This document shows positions 255 to 7,499 of a stretch of DNA of 32,000 nt, piece by piece. Origin of the DNA: Candidatus Thorarchaeota archaeon (GTDB taxonomy: Archaea; Asgardarchaeota; Thorarchaeia; Thorarchaeales; Thorarchaeaceae); assembly GCA_008080745.1 (NCBI GenBank), contig SHMX01000001.1, forward strand, positions 270,001 through 302,000, in the 5' to 3' direction. The notes beneath the pieces are model-generated. The model ran no database searches, was not told where the DNA came from, and was given only the letters and a program-made list of their open reading frames with translations. The first letter of the stretch is position 1, and each line of letters opens with the position of its first letter. The position numbers and the translations under genes were made by a program.

Positions 255-1607
255 CTATTCGGTTATAGCATGGGCTTGTAGAGCAATACGGGGTTTTAGT
301 TCACGGATAGAAATTCCAGTTTCTTTCGCGACTTTGAGTACATCATCTGCTTCGGGTTTGATATTGATAATGCTTCCATCAAGTGCTCGGGATACCTTCA
401 CACGCACCATGAATTCTTTATCATCAATCTCTAGTTTACAGACAATTGTTTCACGTACCGCCTTCAAACGTTCCCAATTGGTATATCGAATTCCAATGGT
501 ACCTAAATGCCGGATAAGAATCTCTGCAATAGTCTTCAAACCTGATTTGGGAGCAATAACCTTGACAACAAAACAGGGCCGATTCTTCTTCCCAAAGGCA
601 GGAATGACTACAACATCGTAGGCTAGGCCTTCAGATAGTAAAAGGTCAAATACGCTTCCGATTGCCTCACCATCGGTATCATCGACATTTGTTTCGATTA
701 CAATTACTTCGTCTGCGTTCCATCCCTCTTGCATCTTCTTTCGTTCCTCTGCTTGTTCACTTGTTGTAGGAGTTGTAGGTTCTTTTGTTTCTATGGCGGT
801 AGGTGTTGAAGGTTCTGTCTTTTGTGCTTCTTTGGTTGTTGATTCTTCAAACTCAGCTTCTCCGATAATAATTCGCATTACATTTGGAATATCAAGTTCT
901 CGAATGCCAAAGCCAGCACCTTGGTTCATAGGTATAAAACCCTCTGCAGATTCGACAAATACGTCTGCTAATGTGACTAAGATTGCAGCACCAGTAGGTG
1001 TTAGGACTTCTGTATGGGCATCCCCTGGGTGAAAAGGCACATCGTGAGCTAGAAGAATCTCCTTAACAGCAGGTACAGGAACATCAAGCAATCCGTGTTC
1101 GGTCTGGATAGTTCCATTTCCTACAGCTGCTTTCGTGGAGTAAAATGTTGTGTCGTCCAATAAATCTGCAGATTGAAGCAGATATGCGGTCCCCACCAAG
1201 TCAAGAACAGTATCAATAGAACCAGTTTCATGAAGGTGTAACTTGTCAATAGGAACTTCATGAGCTCGACTCTCAGCTTGCAGAATCTCATTAAAGGCAT
1301 TTGATGCGAATTCCAGAGCCTTTTTCGATAGTTCAAGTTCTTCTGCGACTTCCTTGATAACCCGTTGCATCGAGGATGGAGAGAATCTTACAGATTGATC
1401 ATGGGAAACCTCAAGATGACAACCAGTATTGGTACCTGAACTACGAGGGACTGTCTTTACTCGCAGTGTGGGATCGTATATCAAAAGACTAGCAGCAACA
1501 GGGAGAAGGTTGTCTTCCTCACCTATCAGGTCAACCAATGCAGCTAGAAACATATCCCCAGAGGCCCCAGCAGTAGAAACATCGATTAGAACATGTTTTT
1601 TACTCAA
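255..1607 (-). CDS. larC: LarC-family nickel-pincer cofactor nickel insertase (LarC1+LarC2 fused)
   Basis: Motifs AGASGDMFLAAL, HLHETGSIDTVLDLVG, HGLLDVPVPAV, TPTGAAIL, IETNVDD, GKKNRP and KPEADD. Start moved from the ORF-track 1694 to TTG at 1607 (MSKKHVLID), just before the family N-terminal motif. Confidence 0.85.
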   Translation of the reverse strand: MSKKHVLIDVSTAGASGDMFLAALVDLIGEEDNLLPVAASLLIYDPTLRVKTVPRSSGTNTGCHLEVSHDQSVRFSPSSMQRVIKEVAEELELSKKALEFASNAFNEILQAESRAHEVPIDKLHLHETGSIDTVLDLVGTAYLLQSADLLDDTTFYSTKAAVGNGTIQTEHGLLDVPVPAVKEILLAHDVPFHPGDAHTEVLTPTGAAILVTLADVFVESAEGFIPMNQGAGFGIRELDIPNVMRIIIGEAEFEESTTKEAQKTEPSTPTAIETKEPTTPTTSEQAEERKKMQEGWNADEVIVIETNVDDTDGEAIGSVFDLLLSEGLAYDVVVIPAFGKKNRPCFVVKVIAPKSGLKTIAEILIRHLGTIGIRYTNWERLKAVRETIVCKLEIDDKEFMVRVKVSRALDGSIINIKPEADDVLKVAKETGISIRELKPRIALQAHAITE

Positions 1608-1755
1608 TCTAATTATTCTCCTAGTTGTGGGTCTGCAAACTGAGCAGGTATTCCTACCTTTTCTTTCTTTTGAGGACGAGTTCTCAGAAAGCACGCCATA
1701 TTGAAGGTGAAGGCTGTCTTAAATAACGTTGTGTAAATGAACTCTGAGCACTTGT

Positions 1756-2538
1756 TCAATCTTTCTTTCCTTTACGTCTCCATTGGTCAAATATTGCCAT
1801 ATACATACATTCAGTGGGACTAATCCACATTTCTGAAGAGTCGTATGATTGGTCTGAGAGTTCTACGGGTGCATTTCGAATCAGTGCAGCAGGAATTGAT
1901 TCGTCCGATTCACCCATGACGGCTGTACAGGCGGAGGCCAAATTATCCGCTATAGCCCTTCTTGTTATTCGCATTTCATTACCAAAGAGGTCCTTTCTCC
2001 CACGATCATCAGCAACAGGTTTGAAGCCAGCTACTCCAAGAGCCATACCAATATTACCCAATCGAAGAGGTTGTGTTCGACTATCGATAATAAGAATTCC
2101 AATCTTCAAGCCTAATCGGTCTTTAATTTGTTTTCTTAGGCGTTCTGCACTGGCTCTCGAATCTTTTGGTAGTAGTGATGCATATCCAACAGGAATATTG
2201 GATTTGTCGACACCAGCATTAGCCATTAGAGTATTATTCTTGATGGTGAGCATCACATGAGGGATTCCTCCCAGAATCTCGTCAGCCTCATCGAGTACAA
2301 GCTGGGCAACCTCGGGAATTATGGTATAACGCTCGCCTAATTCTTGAGCCTTCGATGAAACCTCGATATCTGACAGTTTGACTATTTGACCTTCAGTTGT
2401 ACCAAGAGGAGTTTCCGCAATACCGATGATATCACCGTTTTCAAGTTTGAATCCGGACTGTTCAATTCCTTCCAATAGAACTTCAATAATATCATCATCA
2501 GGAGAGATAATACGTGTCTTAATCGGGATAACGAACAT
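1756..2538 (-). CDS. cofE: CofE-family gamma-glutamyl ligase (coenzyme F420-0:L-glutamate ligase-like)
   Basis: Motifs IPIKTRII..DD, LENGDIIGIAE, MANAGVDKSN, IIDSRTQPLRLG, D.RGRKDLFG, AIADNLASA and VMGESDESIPAALIR. ATG at 2538 follows AGGTG. Confidence 0.85.
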   Translation of the reverse strand: MFVIPIKTRIISPDDDIIEVLLEGIEQSGFKLENGDIIGIAETPLGTTEGQIVKLSDIEVSSKAQELGERYTIIPEVAQLVLDEADEILGGIPHVMLTIKNNTLMANAGVDKSNIPVGYASLLPKDSRASAERLRKQIKDRLGLKIGILIIDSRTQPLRLGNIGMALGVAGFKPVADDRGRKDLFGNEMRITRRAIADNLASACTAVMGESDESIPAALIRNAPVELSDQSYDSSEMWISPTECMYMAIFDQWRRKGKKD

Positions 2539-2591
2539 GTGATGCACCTAAGGAGAAGCAATATAATCTCAAAATAAAATATACCATTGTT

Positions 2592-4007
2592 CTATGATTT
2601 CTTCCCTTTTTGTAATCTAGCTCGTTCAGACATGATACAACGGTCACCCTTTCGTCCACCCATTGGTTCATGTGGAGTTCCCATAGAATTCATACATCTA
2701 GCAGCAACAGCCGCACCCATTGCAAGTCCATCCTCAACAAACACAACAGGATTTTTCTGAACCCAGAGAGATCCATCAGCCAGATGCAGATTCTCTGCAA
2801 TAAGAAGTGGTTTTCCTGCAGAAGTAATCGCCCTACCGGTCAGTCCCAATGAAGTATTCTCAAGAATAAGATCACTCTCTTGAGCCACTGTAAGAATTCG
2901 TTGAAGAACCCGAAGTTGGACATAGTCGATGATTGTTAGAAGACCTTTTGCACCAGACTCCTGAAAGATAGCTCCACCAATTCCCTCTAAATCAGATAAT
3001 TTAGAGCCATTCTTTCCAGCATCCACACCAATCAGTACAACCCCACCTTCATCCGCAGCAGTGGGATTTACAGGAACTGTACCAAACCTGCTAGTCCCTT
3101 TTTGTATAGTTTGAACACGGATCAGTCGACTGATTTCTTCAACCCATTCCAAATTGATAGGAGCCGAGAAGGCTTGGGACGAGGCATGAAGGTCCAATGT
3201 GCATCCAAATCTGGAATCAACCTGACCACTTCCTCTGACTAGGGCATCAGGGATAGCGCCTGCTAACCCAGCAAACGAACCTATTGTCTTTGCATAGGGG
3301 TAGGAATCATTAGTTACCCTTCCGGCTAATGTAGTACCAAAATCTAGAGTCATAACAGGATTTCTGAAGTCAACTTGAGTACCCTTTGCTGCCCCCTTGA
3401 TGCCTGCAGTTACAAGCTCTCCTTCCATCTCGTTTGCGACAATTCCAGTTTCTTCAGGAGGTAGACAGCTTGCAATTGCCCCATCGAAATGAACCTTTTT
3501 CAACCAGCTAAAATCTCGAATGCCAGGAGGGAGCTTGTCAGGGTTCATAGTGGCCATCATTCTTTGAGGGGGAATTCCAGCTTTCAAACAACCATCAGCC
3601 AAAGCCTTGATGATACCATGAACTTCTTTGGGACTACCAAAACTTGCAGTCACACCGGTTGAACGAACAACAAAATGAACATCTTTTTCTCGGTTCAGTC
3701 TTGATTTCATAAGTACAGCATCTAATATGTCTGAGATGAATTCAACAACCGCTTCGTGTGTCAATTCCACACCTACAACTGTGTTTCCAAATACCTCCTC
3801 AGTGGGATGTGGTGGACGAATATTTCTTGTATGTCGCACTTCTTTAGCAATCTGATATAGAATACCCGTTTTCAGATTGGTAGTCATAAGAATACATTTG
3901 GTTGTAGTATTTCCAAGTTCTACTGAAATGACTGTGTAAAATGGACCCATCTTTAATGATGTTGTACCGATAGCTTGTGGCCAAATCGAATAGAAATTGT
4001 TACCCAA
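2592..4007 (-). CDS. Methanogenesis marker 14 (DUF2114)-like protein, ASKHA fold, diol-dehydratase-reactivase-like
   Basis: SVELGNTTTKCIL (phosphate-1-like), HFVVRSTGVTA, VANEMEGEL..AGIK, TLDFGTTLAG (phosphate-2-like) and VEDGLAMGAAVAARCMNS. TTG start 9 nt after the mtrH stop with SD GAGGTG. Confidence 0.8.
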   Translation of the reverse strand: MGNNFYSIWPQAIGTTSLKMGPFYTVISVELGNTTTKCILMTTNLKTGILYQIAKEVRHTRNIRPPHPTEEVFGNTVVGVELTHEAVVEFISDILDAVLMKSRLNREKDVHFVVRSTGVTASFGSPKEVHGIIKALADGCLKAGIPPQRMMATMNPDKLPPGIRDFSWLKKVHFDGAIASCLPPEETGIVANEMEGELVTAGIKGAAKGTQVDFRNPVMTLDFGTTLAGRVTNDSYPYAKTIGSFAGLAGAIPDALVRGSGQVDSRFGCTLDLHASSQAFSAPINLEWVEEISRLIRVQTIQKGTSRFGTVPVNPTAADEGGVVLIGVDAGKNGSKLSDLEGIGGAIFQESGAKGLLTIIDYVQLRVLQRILTVAQESDLILENTSLGLTGRAITSAGKPLLIAENLHLADGSLWVQKNPVVFVEDGLAMGAAVAARCMNSMGTPHEPMGGRKGDRCIMSERARLQKGKKS

Positions 4008-4016
4008 ACTGACACC

Positions 4017-4952
4017 TCAAACAAGTTTTCTAAAGGGATGATCCTCAGATGGTTCGATTCCGAATTCCATCTTTGCAGATTCTGCTGCAAACACATCAGC
4101 CATAGCAACTACAGGAAACACTCTATCAGCGTTACTGATGGGGCCATATAGAACATAATCCGCTCCCAGCATTTGCACAATAAGATTAGAGGCTATATCA
4201 CAGGTCTGATATGCCAGTTTATTCTCTTTCTTGAGTTTCCGTAACCAGGTCCATGATGATGGGGCGTTATGAATCCCTGAACCAGTAGGATATCCGTAAA
4301 CCGTCTTAGCAACAAATGTGAATGATGCTGATGAGCCTGCTCCAGCACCCATGGCAGTAGTTGCTGTATCTAACAGCGGTTTTGAAATCCCTATTCTTTT
4401 TGCAAGTGAGAGTAATCCCTCTTTGAGACCACCACCTCCCTCGTCCAAGATTGCTCGGCGTCCAGCTATGGAGGGATCTTGAGGGTTAAAGACAAGAACT
4501 ATTGCACAGCTGTGCTTCATATCCATAAGAGCCTGAATCTCCTCAGAAGTGACAGATACATTGATTGAATTGTATATTGCTCTATCTAACAGCCCTATTT
4601 CTTCTGCATGTTGCATTCCTGCAATCCGTACAGAAGCATCTGCTGAATCAATGATAATTGGAGAATCAGAAATATCAGTTACAAAATCGATATATTTTTT
4701 CATAGCAATAGCAGACTCGGCAAATATCTGGATTATCGCGGGATTTCCAGTACGGTGGGCCATAGTATCCTGTTGAAGAATAAGGTCTTCTGCAACCTTC
4801 TCATCGAATATACCCTGTTTAGCATCCCTTACTATTTTGTCTCCACTATAGAATATTGTTCCAGCAAGTGCTGTTGGATTCTCACCGAGATTCCCCCCGA
4901 TTTTGATTCCACCAACATCGTAGATGAATTGTTCTTTCTCAAATACAAACAT
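4017..4952 (-). CDS. mtrH: MtrH/MtxH-family methyl-pterin:corrinoid methyltransferase
   Basis: MFVFEKEQ...KIGGNLGENPTALAGTIFY, IIIDSAD, IYNSIN, LLDTA, GSGIHNAPSSW and GADYVLYGPI. ATG directly abuts the mtrA stop (TAAATG). Confidence 0.9.
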   Translation of the reverse strand: MFVFEKEQFIYDVGGIKIGGNLGENPTALAGTIFYSGDKIVRDAKQGIFDEKVAEDLILQQDTMAHRTGNPAIIQIFAESAIAMKKYIDFVTDISDSPIIIDSADASVRIAGMQHAEEIGLLDRAIYNSINVSVTSEEIQALMDMKHSCAIVLVFNPQDPSIAGRRAILDEGGGGLKEGLLSLAKRIGISKPLLDTATTAMGAGAGSSASFTFVAKTVYGYPTGSGIHNAPSSWTWLRKLKKENKLAYQTCDIASNLIVQMLGADYVLYGPISNADRVFPVVAMADVFAAESAKMEFGIEPSEDHPFRKLV

Positions 4953-5639
4953 TTAGTTCAACTCCTTTGCAACCAGGATAGTTCCAGACTCTGATTCCCG
5001 AATCTCCACACCCACGCGGCTTGGATGGGTAGATGCTATAACAAGAGGATTAGAACCCCCAATCTGGGACGTAAAAGGCTCTAATTCAAGATCATATTCC
5101 GGTATTAGTGCGATGCTTCCCCGCATCTCTTGAGCTCGTTTCTTTGCTGAATCTCCCTTGAACTCGACCCATATTGGTTGATCGGGATATGATTCGGTTT
5201 CAATTGAACGAAGCTCCTCTACTTTAGCTGCGATTATATCTGGATTGGATGTATTCATCATGTCTATGAATTCTACCTGATTGCGGAATCGTTCCACAGC
5301 TTCTAAAGGTACATTTTCGATATAGGGAATAGCTCCGGGAGCATCGATTATCTTCCTGGTATCAGCATCGATTCCGTGTTTATGTAAACATCTCATACTA
5401 GAGCCAGTCAAATGGCCCGGGACTTCTGGTCCTGCCAATATGAAGAACCGTATATTGGTGTTAGATACAACGTTCACAATTACTCGTTCAATACCAATAT
5501 TCTCGGTCTTACATGTGCCAATAATACAATAGTCTGCATCCACCTCAATCTTCTTCCCAAGTGTGCAGATAGCAATTGACCCATCTGGGACTTTTACTTC
5601 AAAATCACCGGGTACGGGAGGCCATATTTTTTCAGACAT
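4953..5639 (-). CDS. mtrA: Soluble MtrA/MtxA-family corrinoid protein with a non-membrane C-terminal extension
   Basis: WPPVPGDF, AICTLG, GTCKTENIGIERVIVNVVSNTNIRFFILAGPEVPGH (cobalt-ligand His), GAIPYIEN and VERFRNQVE. No C-terminal hydrophobic helix. ATG at 5639 follows GGAGGTG. Confidence 0.9.
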   Translation of the reverse strand: MSEKIWPPVPGDFEVKVPDGSIAICTLGKKIEVDADYCIIGTCKTENIGIERVIVNVVSNTNIRFFILAGPEVPGHLTGSSMRCLHKHGIDADTRKIIDAPGAIPYIENVPLEAVERFRNQVEFIDMMNTSNPDIIAAKVEELRSIETESYPDQPIWVEFKGDSAKKRAQEMRGSIALIPEYDLELEPFTSQIGGSNPLVIASTHPSRVGVEIRESESGTILVAKELN

Positions 5640-5651
5640 TAATAGCACCTC

Positions 5652-6569
5652 CTAATCAATTGTGCGCGGTTCGAACAGACTTCGTTCAATCCCCAAAGCC
5701 CGATTTGCCTCGGCAGTTGCAGCAGCGATAGCATTTCCTATCAAAGCAACTGCAACAAATACTTCCTTAGTTCGAATCATGGATCCGTACATGATGCAAT
5801 CTGTTGCAAATAATTGAGATGCAACAGTTGAAGCAACTACAGCTGAAAGGTGAGTCGATTCATCATCAAATCCTTCCTTTTTCAATAACTTCCATGCAGA
5901 GGGAGCATTATGAGGACCAAGACAAGTGGGCAGTCCCAGCTCGGATTTGATTGCAAGCATAGTCCTATTCTCTAACCCATAACCTGCTCCAACGGGCATA
6001 GTTGCCGGGTCAACAACCATCTTTGTAATACCCATACCCTCAGCATCCTCAATCATCGATTCAATAGTCGTCATTCTATCGGGGAGGGTAGTTGCCCTTG
6101 GAGACCATCCTAAAACTACAGCCATGTTCAACTTACTTGCTGAAAGAAGGTCTTTCTCCGCGTCCTTCATTGACAAATTGATCGAATTGTAGATTGCTCT
6201 ATCCTCAAGACCCTGTTCCTCACAGTACTGAATAGCGAATTTTCTTGCCTTTGCGCTGGTTGATTCGAACATGAAGGGGCCTTCGTAGTTCTCGGCCAGC
6301 CAGCTAATGTGATTTTCCATAGCAGTGGGTGTTCTTCCATAGGCTTGGATAATGAGTGGATGGCCGGTTTCTTTGGTCTGTGAAACTCCTGTTTCAATCC
6401 ATTCCCTTGTTAATCTCTTATCAAAACGACCTTCTTTGGTACTTTCAACAATGGGTTGTCCCTTGAAAAAAAGGCCACCTATTAGAACGGTGGGATTTTG
6501 TCCTGGCTGACCACCAATTTTTACCCCACCAAAATCGAAGACTTGTTGTTCTTTTTTGAATACAAACAT
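5652..6569 (-). CDS. Second, divergent MtrH-family methyltransferase paralogue (MtrH')
   Basis: MFVFKKEQ...KIGGQPGQNPTVLIGGLFF, FMFESTS, IYNSIN, VVDPA, GPHNAPSAW and DCIMYG are colinear with the 4017-4952 protein. SD GAGGTG overlaps the metF stop. Confidence 0.8.
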   Translation of the reverse strand: MFVFKKEQQVFDFGGVKIGGQPGQNPTVLIGGLFFKGQPIVESTKEGRFDKRLTREWIETGVSQTKETGHPLIIQAYGRTPTAMENHISWLAENYEGPFMFESTSAKARKFAIQYCEEQGLEDRAIYNSINLSMKDAEKDLLSASKLNMAVVLGWSPRATTLPDRMTTIESMIEDAEGMGITKMVVDPATMPVGAGYGLENRTMLAIKSELGLPTCLGPHNAPSAWKLLKKEGFDDESTHLSAVVASTVASQLFATDCIMYGSMIRTKEVFVAVALIGNAIAAATAEANRALGIERSLFEPRTID

Positions 6570-6578
6570 GTAGACACC

Positions 6579-7499
6579 TCACCTCGGTCGTGGTAAAAGA
6601 CCCGACCGTTTTACTATCTCAGGAAGACTCTCTTCCCATCCGACCGCCATGATATGAATTCCATCAATACCAGGAAGTTCTCGGACCTGCTCGATTGTTT
6701 CAACAGCAATGTTCAGACCCTCTGCTCGAATAGCAGTCCTCTTATCAAGGCCGGCTAATCCATTTCCTGCCATCTCCAACCTATGAATCATTGTGTCTGG
6801 TATCTTAAACCCAGGTATTCTTTGATTCATGAAAAGAGCCATTTTTGGCCCCTTCAGAGGGATTATTCCAGCAATTATTTTGATATCTTCAACTGGAATA
6901 TGACTCAGGAATTTTTCAAAGCGCGGAATGTCATAGATAGCTTGGGTCTGGAAGAATTGTGCTCCTGCTTGTTTTTTCTTTGAAACACGCATTGCCTGTA
7001 AGGGCATTGGATCCGCATAGGGATTGAACGTGGATCCAAGAAAGAATTGTGGCGTACCCTCTAAATCAGCACCTGCAAGATCTTTCCCGCTCATAAGATG
7101 TTTTGCCAATTGAAGTGCTTGAATTGAGTCAATATCATAGACCATCTTGGTCTTTGGGTGAGAGCCGAGGAGGGTATGGTCACCCGTAATGAATAGTACA
7201 TTTTCGAGCCCGAGTGCATGAGCCCCATATAATTCGCTTTGAAAGAGTACTCTATTTCGATCTCTAGCTGACATCTGAATGATGGGTTCAATACCCGCAT
7301 TAAGTAAAATATGCCCGCAGACCATGCTGCTCATCGATGGAATCCCCCGTACATTGTCTGTGATGTTTATTGCATCACAATAATCCCTGATAATGGATGC
7401 TCGCTGTGTCACCAGACTTGCATCAGCTCCATGAGGTGGAGTTATCTCTCCAGTGACTACAAACTTCTCTTCCTCAAGTAATTGATCAAGCCGTGACAG
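6579..7499 (-). CDS. metF: Methylenetetrahydrofolate reductase catalytic subunit (MetF), probable CTG start
   Basis: DAINITDN, EPIIQMSARDRNR, LFITGDH and KKKQAGAQFFQTQAIYD. The frame extends upstream of the ORF-track start (7412) through SRLDQLLEEEKFVVTGEITPPHG to an in-frame TAA at 7521-7523. The only plausible start is CTG at 7499, 9 nt after AGGAG. Confidence 0.85.
   Translation of the reverse strand: MSRLDQLLEEEKFVVTGEITPPHGADASLVTQRASIIRDYCDAINITDNVRGIPSMSSMVCGHILLNAGIEPIIQMSARDRNRVLFQSELYGAHALGLENVLFITGDHTLLGSHPKTKMVYDIDSIQALQLAKHLMSGKDLAGADLEGTPQFFLGSTFNPYADPMPLQAMRVSKKKQAGAQFFQTQAIYDIPRFEKFLSHIPVEDIKIIAGIIPLKGPKMALFMNQRIPGFKIPDTMIHRLEMAGNGLAGLDKRTAIRAEGLNIAVETIEQVRELPGIDGIHIMAVGWEESLPEIVKRSGLLPRPR

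Follow-up and report, generated by a model that had tools for sequence, protein, structure and literature searches.

The window, a stretch of 32,000 nucleotides from contig SHMX01000001.1 of a Candidatus Thorarchaeota archaeon, carries on its minus strand an mtr cluster which, together with its flanks, comprises seven co-directional genes according to the list of open reading frames and profile searches against Pfam and NCBIfam (Table 1). The gene for MtrA lies between two genes of the MtrH family, the products of which, referred to here as MtrH' and MtrH, are 35% identical. The gap between mtrH' and mtrA measures 3-12 nt, while mtrH starts directly at the stop codon of mtrA (0 nt spacing), and the order MtrH'-MtrA-MtrH was kept in 30 of 30 loci examined. 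Right after mtrH lies the gene for methanogenesis marker 14, a candidate auxiliary factor for the corrinoid system in this organism, which has no Mcr. The region immediately upstream of the cluster contains two large genes for paralogous secreted or anchored proteins that share long near-identical stretches.

Table 1 Features of the mtr locus. Positions refer to the window, residues to the respective protein.
Feature	Position	Strand	Evidence or remark
Secreted/anchored protein, 700 aa	10056-12158	-	paralogue of the 778-aa protein
Secreted/anchored protein, 778 aa	7611-9947	-	paralogue of the 700-aa protein
MTHFR-like (MetF) gene	6579-7412	-	Pfam MTHFR, E 3.4e-28; next upstream of MtrH'
MtrH', 305 aa	5652-6569	-	Pfam MtrH, E 3.7e-71
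R202 of MtrH'	5964-5966	-	equivalent of Arg211 of M. mazei MtrH; invariant in MtrH'
MtrA, 231 aa	4953-5648	-	Pfam MtrA (PF04208), E 2.4e-52
MtrA corrinoid-binding core, residues 7-168	5145-5630	-	PF04208, E 2.4e-52; Foldseek of the AF2 model
His lower axial ligand, H79 of MtrA	5412-5414	-	EVPGH aligned to EVQGH of 5laa; His84 in M. marburgensis numbering
Flexible basic linker, residues ~163-176 of MtrA	5121-5162	-	pLDDT <50 at 165-176 (AF2); variable columns in alignments A2 and A5
MtrB-N-terminus-like arm SIALIPEYDLELEPFTSQIGG, residues 178-198 of MtrA (~22 residues, to 199)	5055-5117	-	sequence and fold matches
Pro183-Glu184 within the arm	5097-5102	-	P and E invariant in alignment A1
C-terminal beta-hairpin HPSxVGIEVR...GTILVGKE, residues 211-230 of MtrA	4959-5018	-	AF2 strands 211-219 and 222-230
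MtrH, 311 aa	4017-4952	-	Pfam MtrH, E 4.2e-116
E5 of MtrH	4938-4940	-	position 5, Asp in methanogen MtrH
Methanogenesis marker 14 / DUF2114	2592-4007	-	DUF2114, E 6e-177; TIGR03285, E 2.4e-173; next downstream of mtrH
F420-0:gamma-glutamyl ligase family gene	1756-2547	-	Pfam PF01996
Nickel-insertion protein family gene	255-1694	-	Pfam PF01969

Many non-methanogenic archaea retain only MtrA and MtrH. The genome to which the window belongs (3.16 Mb) encodes one MtrA and two MtrH proteins; MtrB, MtrC, MtrD, MtrE and MtrG were not detected above the family cut-offs in this 98% complete genome, and a profile search did not find McrA. Since only MtrA and two MtrH proteins were found among the subunits searched for, the system represents a minimal, soluble Mtr, in agreement with a preliminary description of this DNA, which had proposed a minimal Mtr.

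MtrA and the module in place of its membrane anchor

MtrA comprises 231 aa, or 228 aa if counted from an ATG three codons further in, at which the database copy (P0002) begins. The AF2 model of its core superimposes closely on solved MtrA structures (Foldseek; 5l8x_A with an E-value of 4.5e-18 and an rmsd of 1.2 A, 9qtr_A with an E-value of 1.6e-17), and H79 aligns to the GH motif of these structures and is invariant across 72 MtrA homologues. The juxtamembrane start NPGxYPExPxWIDF is conserved as well, after which no hydrophobic helix follows. The maximal hydropathy of the tail, calculated according to Kyte and Doolittle over 19 residues, is 0.47, whereas 35 MtrA proteins of methanogens reach 2.0-2.8 in their C-termini. 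Neither the hydropathy profile nor the AF2 model, which shows beta-strands only, predicts a stalk helix or transmembrane anchor in the tail, so that the absence of the anchor helix noted in the preliminary description is confirmed.

The canonical membrane-anchored MtrA (~240 aa) shares the corrinoid core, the His ligand and the juxtamembrane start (N/DPGxY/FxEE...) with the protein described here up to approximately residue 163. It then continues into a long helix and the membrane anchor, whereas the thorarchaeial MtrA carries a beta-module at this position. Cytoplasmic MtrA homologues (170-180 aa; 5laa, 5l8x) possess the same core and His ligand but end there. The protein thus belongs to the MtrA family and corresponds to neither of these two forms, the canonical membrane MtrA and the bare cytoplasmic homologue (PMC4915002).

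The tail module spans ~55-57 residues, is all-beta and was found at the C-terminus of more than 100 Asgard MtrA proteins of 225-235 aa. Relatives are annotated as Thorarchaeota, and the closest one is labelled Lokiarchaeota. Its consensus reads xVxLLPExGxxLDPxxSLV......HPSxxGIEVRxxxxGTILVGKE, with P, E, G and E being invariant; within the hairpin, residues G222, T223 and E229 are invariant or nearly so. According to AF2, the arm consists of three strands (179-182, 187-190 and 195-198), which are followed by the two strands of the hairpin. The pLDDT is 81-91 over the five strands, and the full protein and the tail alone gave the same outcome. This conservation with invariant positions and the confident fold argue against the view that the tail is a remnant, under little constraint, of the juxtamembrane region that was lost, and that its resemblance to other proteins, as a short beta-rich peptide, is due to chance; we consider this view very unlikely.

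Known domain families do not include the tail, as Pfam and NCBIfam gave no match to it at E-values of up to 10. A word-based search retrieved two close relatives only, and when the tail profile was run exhaustively against 1.84 billion proteins, it yielded 11 matches, of which ten were whole or partial Asgard MtrA sequences and the last was a low-complexity protein; neither an MtrB nor a free-standing tail domain was among them. A wide search with the tail model using VIA-align and a search of afdb_clusters returned nothing informative. The second half of the tail (approximately residues 200-228) has a weak PDB match to LAMTOR5 and other roadblock-fold proteins (E-value ~0.7), which is probably due to chance.

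Alternatively, the tail could be a lineage-specific beta-module with a different job, such as self-association of MtrA or binding of the marker-14 protein, which is of the ASKHA type, or of another partner, and its likeness to MtrB could be convergent or that of a generic strand-addition element instead of a dock for MtrH. In favour of this, the 57-residue module as a whole has relatives in Asgard MtrA only and matches no known domain. Conservation is equally strong in both halves of the module, yet the second has no counterpart in MtrB, and the gene for marker 14 is co-transcribed just downstream. Nevertheless, we regard this explanation as unlikely, given that sequence and fold searches of entire databases single out MtrB, as detailed below.

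Likeness of the tail to the N-terminus of MtrB

When the single tail sequence was compared to 177,635 distinct PDB sequences, the sole match at E-values of up to 10 was residues 2-28 of M. marburgensis MtrB (8q3v_B). MtrB was also the top PDB match of a profile built from 54 tail sequences (E-value 0.1). Individually, the PDB matches between tail and MtrB are weak (E-values 0.1-0.46). The MtrB sequence given in the preliminary description proved accurate when checked against the N-terminus of 8q3v_B.

For a wider comparison we used 46 distinct MtrB proteins from a single methanogen phylum (57 mtr loci); the comparison with M. mazei MtrB relied on its structure alone. All 37 MtrB proteins of the Methanobacteria type scored 11-21 bits with the tail profile (p 1e-8 to 1e-5), while nine divergent ones of the IIIDDxLxLDVNTG type scored approximately 0. 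These nine (loci L041-L048) carry I-D-D-x instead of P-E-Y/M-N (IIIDDNLEMDVNTGVIG), which means that the Pro-Glu pair of the arm is not universal even in methanogens. The alignment of the tail profile with MtrB by hhalign had a probability of 81-88% (P 1.3e-5 to 3e-6) and placed tail columns 5-27 on MtrB residues 6-28. Among 2,461 six-frame ORFs of the 57 methanogen loci, every match to the tail profile above 8 bits was an MtrB. The ORFs of MtrA, MtrF and MtrG in the same set did not match the tail profile. An origin of the tail from the C-terminal helix of MtrA itself, from MtrF or from MtrG was therefore rejected.

A shuffle control supports the specificity of these matches, as 0 of 11,100 composition-preserving shuffles of the first 35 MtrB residues attained the lowest real score. 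In the reverse direction, an HMM of the N-terminus of Methanobacteria MtrB matched 104 of 121 Asgard MtrA proteins, always within the tail at approximately residues 178-199; the reverse test was convincing only with this HMM, restricted to Methanobacteria and to the N-terminus, and with the wider set of tails. Its best match was to an MtrA of another Asgard family (P0132, INLLPEFNINLDPYTGLVSAI) with 24.1 bits (p 1.3e-9). The arm of P0132 acts as an intermediate between MtrB and the tail in the window, which itself scored 11.0 bits (p 1.6e-5). When the ORFs of the window's own genome were searched with a mixed MtrB HMM, the MtrA ORF ranked only 7th to 9th (E-values 12-15). The Pfam MtrB profile (PF05440) did not match the tail, and its only match in the whole genome was a chance match elsewhere. 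The profile match to MtrB suggested in the preliminary description was hence obtained with hhalign and with the N-terminal HMM, while the Pfam HMM did not reveal it.

The fold of the tail points in the same direction. In a Foldseek comparison of the AF2 tail model with the PDB, ranks 1 and 2 were taken by M. mazei MtrB (9qts_E and 9qts_D), although with E-values above 1, so that nothing was significant by this measure. A 27-residue piece of MtrB that is modelled together with MtrH (9qtp_E) superimposed on the tail model with a TM-score of 0.70 and an rmsd of 2.2 A. Against 550,129 Swiss-Prot models, MtrB held nine of the 27 top places, including ranks 1 and 2. These MtrB proteins span four methanogen orders (Methanothermobacter, Methanosarcina, Methanococcus and Methanopyrus), comprise Methanosarcina and Methanococcus sequences that were missed by the sequence profile, and align in every case with their N-terminus to the start of the tail. 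The one point in favour of a chance resemblance is that E-values across whole databases fall short of significance when taken alone; besides the conservation and fold described above, the absence of shuffled sequences with real scores, the agreement of forward and reverse profiles on the position in 104 of 104 cases and the dissimilarity of the methanogen MtrA C-terminus to the tail all speak against it.

The arms of MtrB and of the thorarchaeial MtrA share the motif hydrophobic-x-hydrophobic-hydrophobic-P-E-aromatic-x-L-x-L-D-P-x-T/S-G/S-hydrophobic-hydrophobic and form three short beta-strands within ~22 residues in both proteins. They differ in position, as the arm is the N-terminus of a separate protein in MtrB and located at the C-terminus of MtrA in Thorarchaeia. 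Furthermore, the cytoplasmic helix and the C-terminal transmembrane helix of MtrB are absent from the tail according to AF2 and hydropathy, their place after the arm being taken by a hairpin. The resemblance is limited to ~22-30 residues. The thorarchaeial MtrA thus carries only the docking arm of MtrB and is not a member of the MtrB family. An MtrB-like peptide in place of the anchor, as proposed in the preliminary description, is hence borne out by the sole PDB match, the hhalign result and the shuffle control, whereas a literal fusion of the mtrA and mtrB genes is not supported.

The preliminary description had also assumed a weaker second copy of the MtrB peptide (VGVEIRESESGTILV), possibly with one copy for each MtrH paralogue. 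Two tandem peptides, each docking one paralogue, would match the presence of two MtrH proteins and of two conserved blocks in the tail. However, hhalign gave a probability of 0.4% for the first against the second half of the tail and of 0.2% for the second half against MtrB, and in the AF2 model the second block forms a single long hairpin, which differs from the three-stranded arm. Moreover, a single MtrB arm occupies the MtrH dimer interface of M. mazei, rather than one per monomer (PMC12774963). A second copy was therefore discarded in favour of a conserved beta-hairpin unrelated to MtrB, and we consider tandem docking peptides extremely improbable.

Equivalents of the contact residues in MtrH and MtrH'

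The structures of M. mazei Mtr (9qtp, 9qtq and 9qts) and of M. marburgensis Mtr (8q3v) served as reference for the MtrB arm. In M. marburgensis, the first 30 residues of MtrB are disordered, and AF2 predicted them to be bound to MtrH2 (PMC10998594). In the cryo-EM structure of the M. mazei complex, MtrB residues 1-23 form a three-stranded sheet, on the end of which the MtrH dimer docks via a hydrophobic pocket or groove at its interface, with salt bridges between Arg5 of MtrB and Asp5 of MtrH and between Glu9 of MtrB and Arg211 of MtrH (PMC12774963). The role of this MtrB segment as an MtrH docking element, which the preliminary description had inferred, is thereby seen in a solved structure.

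M. mazei MtrB begins with SIVRIAPEINL, and Glu9 is therefore the E of the P-E pair (IAPE). The invariant P-E pair of the Asgard tails is thus the pair that holds Glu9 in MtrB. This speaks against a beta-module with a different job, since Pro-Glu, the sole invariant dipeptide of the arm, corresponds to the pair through which MtrB touches MtrH in M. mazei. A basic residue equivalent to Arg5 of MtrB, the partner of Asp5 in M. mazei MtrH, is not conserved in the Asgard tails, and this missing contact is an argument for the different job.

The partner residues were mapped by alignment to M. mazei MtrH (9qtp_o), using family alignments of MtrH (A3) and MtrH' (A4) as well as a cross-family alignment. 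Methanogen MtrH has Arg at the position of Arg211 and Asp at position 5. In the thorarchaeial MtrH', the Arg211 equivalent is an invariant Arg (R202) and position 5 is an invariant Lys (K5). MtrH lacks the Arg211 equivalent (Ser, Ala or Gly; S210 in the window) and has Glu, Asp or Gln at position 5. Asgard proteins in which MtrA is fused to MtrH lack it as well (His or Glu), show no conservation at position 5 (Thr, Arg or Asn) and contain no MtrB-like motif. Hence, the Arg partner is kept in MtrH' and lost in the fusions without the motif, which further argues against a different job of the module.

This complementary pattern, as read from the alignments, would fit a heterodimer of MtrH and MtrH' with one asymmetric docking site. 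A complex prediction with MtrH (A3), MtrH' (A4) and the tail (A1) as partner resulted in scores of 0.29, 0.48 and 0.04 with a mark of 0.32 and speaks neither for nor against binding. In MtrH', three of the four pterin-site residues of M. mazei MtrH are kept (Asn128, Asp187 and Asn221). Moreover, an invariant Glu102 occupies the position of Asp103 in MtrH, which hints at a substrate that differs from that of MtrH.

Taken together, the most likely product of the MtrH'-MtrA-MtrH cluster is a soluble corrinoid methyltransferase, in which the tail probably serves as a tether that docks MtrA on MtrH/MtrH'. MtrA carries B12 on its Rossmann-like core with His79 as ligand and has lost the membrane helix. 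The MtrB-type arm of three strands would dock MtrA onto the MtrH/MtrH' dimer, most likely a heterodimer, with R202 of MtrH' providing the conserved Arg for the Glu of the arm. The disordered linker of ~12-15 residues could then allow the corrinoid domain to swing to the TIM-barrel active sites, and the C-terminal hairpin probably completes a small sheet. In methanogens, the corresponding sheet is extended by the N-termini of MtrF and MtrG.

An arm that MtrA has taken over from MtrB or has in common with it would offer a testable architecture composed of corrinoid carrier, linker, arm and MtrH/MtrH' dimer. Such a docking-arm architecture would explain why Thorarchaeia keep two MtrH paralogues on either side of mtrA. 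A minimal soluble MtrA-MtrH/MtrH' complex, if it exists, would also be well suited for structural work.

Distribution, possible origin and comparison with other systems

MtrA was present in 65 of the 201 genomes sampled from the phylum, and the tail-type MtrA in 42 of the 43 genomes of the window's own family. In most other Asgard families, the tail type is replaced by MtrA-MtrH fusions of ~505-586 aa, and such fusions are known from Atabeyarchaeia and Freyarchaeia (PMC11291895). Examples that match Pfam MtrA and then MtrH lie at L090:2702-4225 (+), L091:1649-3247 (-) and ~20 further places; in the two loci examined (L090 and L091), a thymidylate-synthase-like gene directly follows the fusion gene. 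A complete Asgard genome (G166) contains two adjacent MtrA genes (L092:2300-3256 (-) and L092:3139-3864 (-)), and in one of the encoded proteins an N-terminal 2x[4Fe-4S] ferredoxin domain is fused to the MtrA core.

Thorarchaeial MtrAH has been described as 'canonical ... without the other subunits' and as a remnant of Mtr, and in the main text of that study MtrB occurs solely as part of the string MtrABCDEFG (PMC9635834). A full-text literature search found no mention of an MtrB-like element on MtrA. At the level of sequence, the tail strengthens the published interpretation of a remnant of canonical Mtr (PMC9635834). It may be speculated, with somewhat less than even confidence, that the tail is a molecular fossil connecting the soluble MtrA and MtrH of Thorarchaeia with the full membrane-bound Mtr. 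The transition could have taken either direction. An Asgard ancestor may have possessed a complete Mtr including MtrB, of which the membrane part was lost while the arm moved onto MtrA; if true, the tail would be direct evidence of a methanogen-type ancestry. Conversely, the arm may first have been present on a soluble MtrA, as its tail, and have become the MtrB arm of methanogens afterwards. Each of the two routes, if true, would provide a testable model for the assembly or the dismantling of the Na+-pumping Mtr.

In methanogen operons, mtrB is located upstream of mtrA. Simple read-through can therefore not yield an MtrB piece at the C-terminus of MtrA, and common descent of the arm requires a rearrangement. 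We favour common descent with MtrB, and convergence on a short beta-arm is a conceivable alternative to it.

The Asgard fusion proteins resemble the thorarchaeial set in that they are soluble, occur in non-methanogens and join a corrinoid carrier to an MtrH barrel. The connection is covalent in the fusions, whereas the thorarchaeial one would be non-covalent, via a docking peptide and with two separate MtrH paralogues. Docking by the arm would be a second solution next to the one found in other Asgard lineages, where MtrA and MtrH are covalently fused. A likely common logic extends to the three-component corrinoid systems consisting of MT1, corrinoid protein and MT2 (e.g. MtaB-MtaC-MtaA or MtgA), in which the carrier shuttles the methyl group between two TIM-barrel methyltransferases. 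The thorarchaeial system differs from these in that its carrier has the MtrA-type fold, with an MtrB-type arm as its putative tether.
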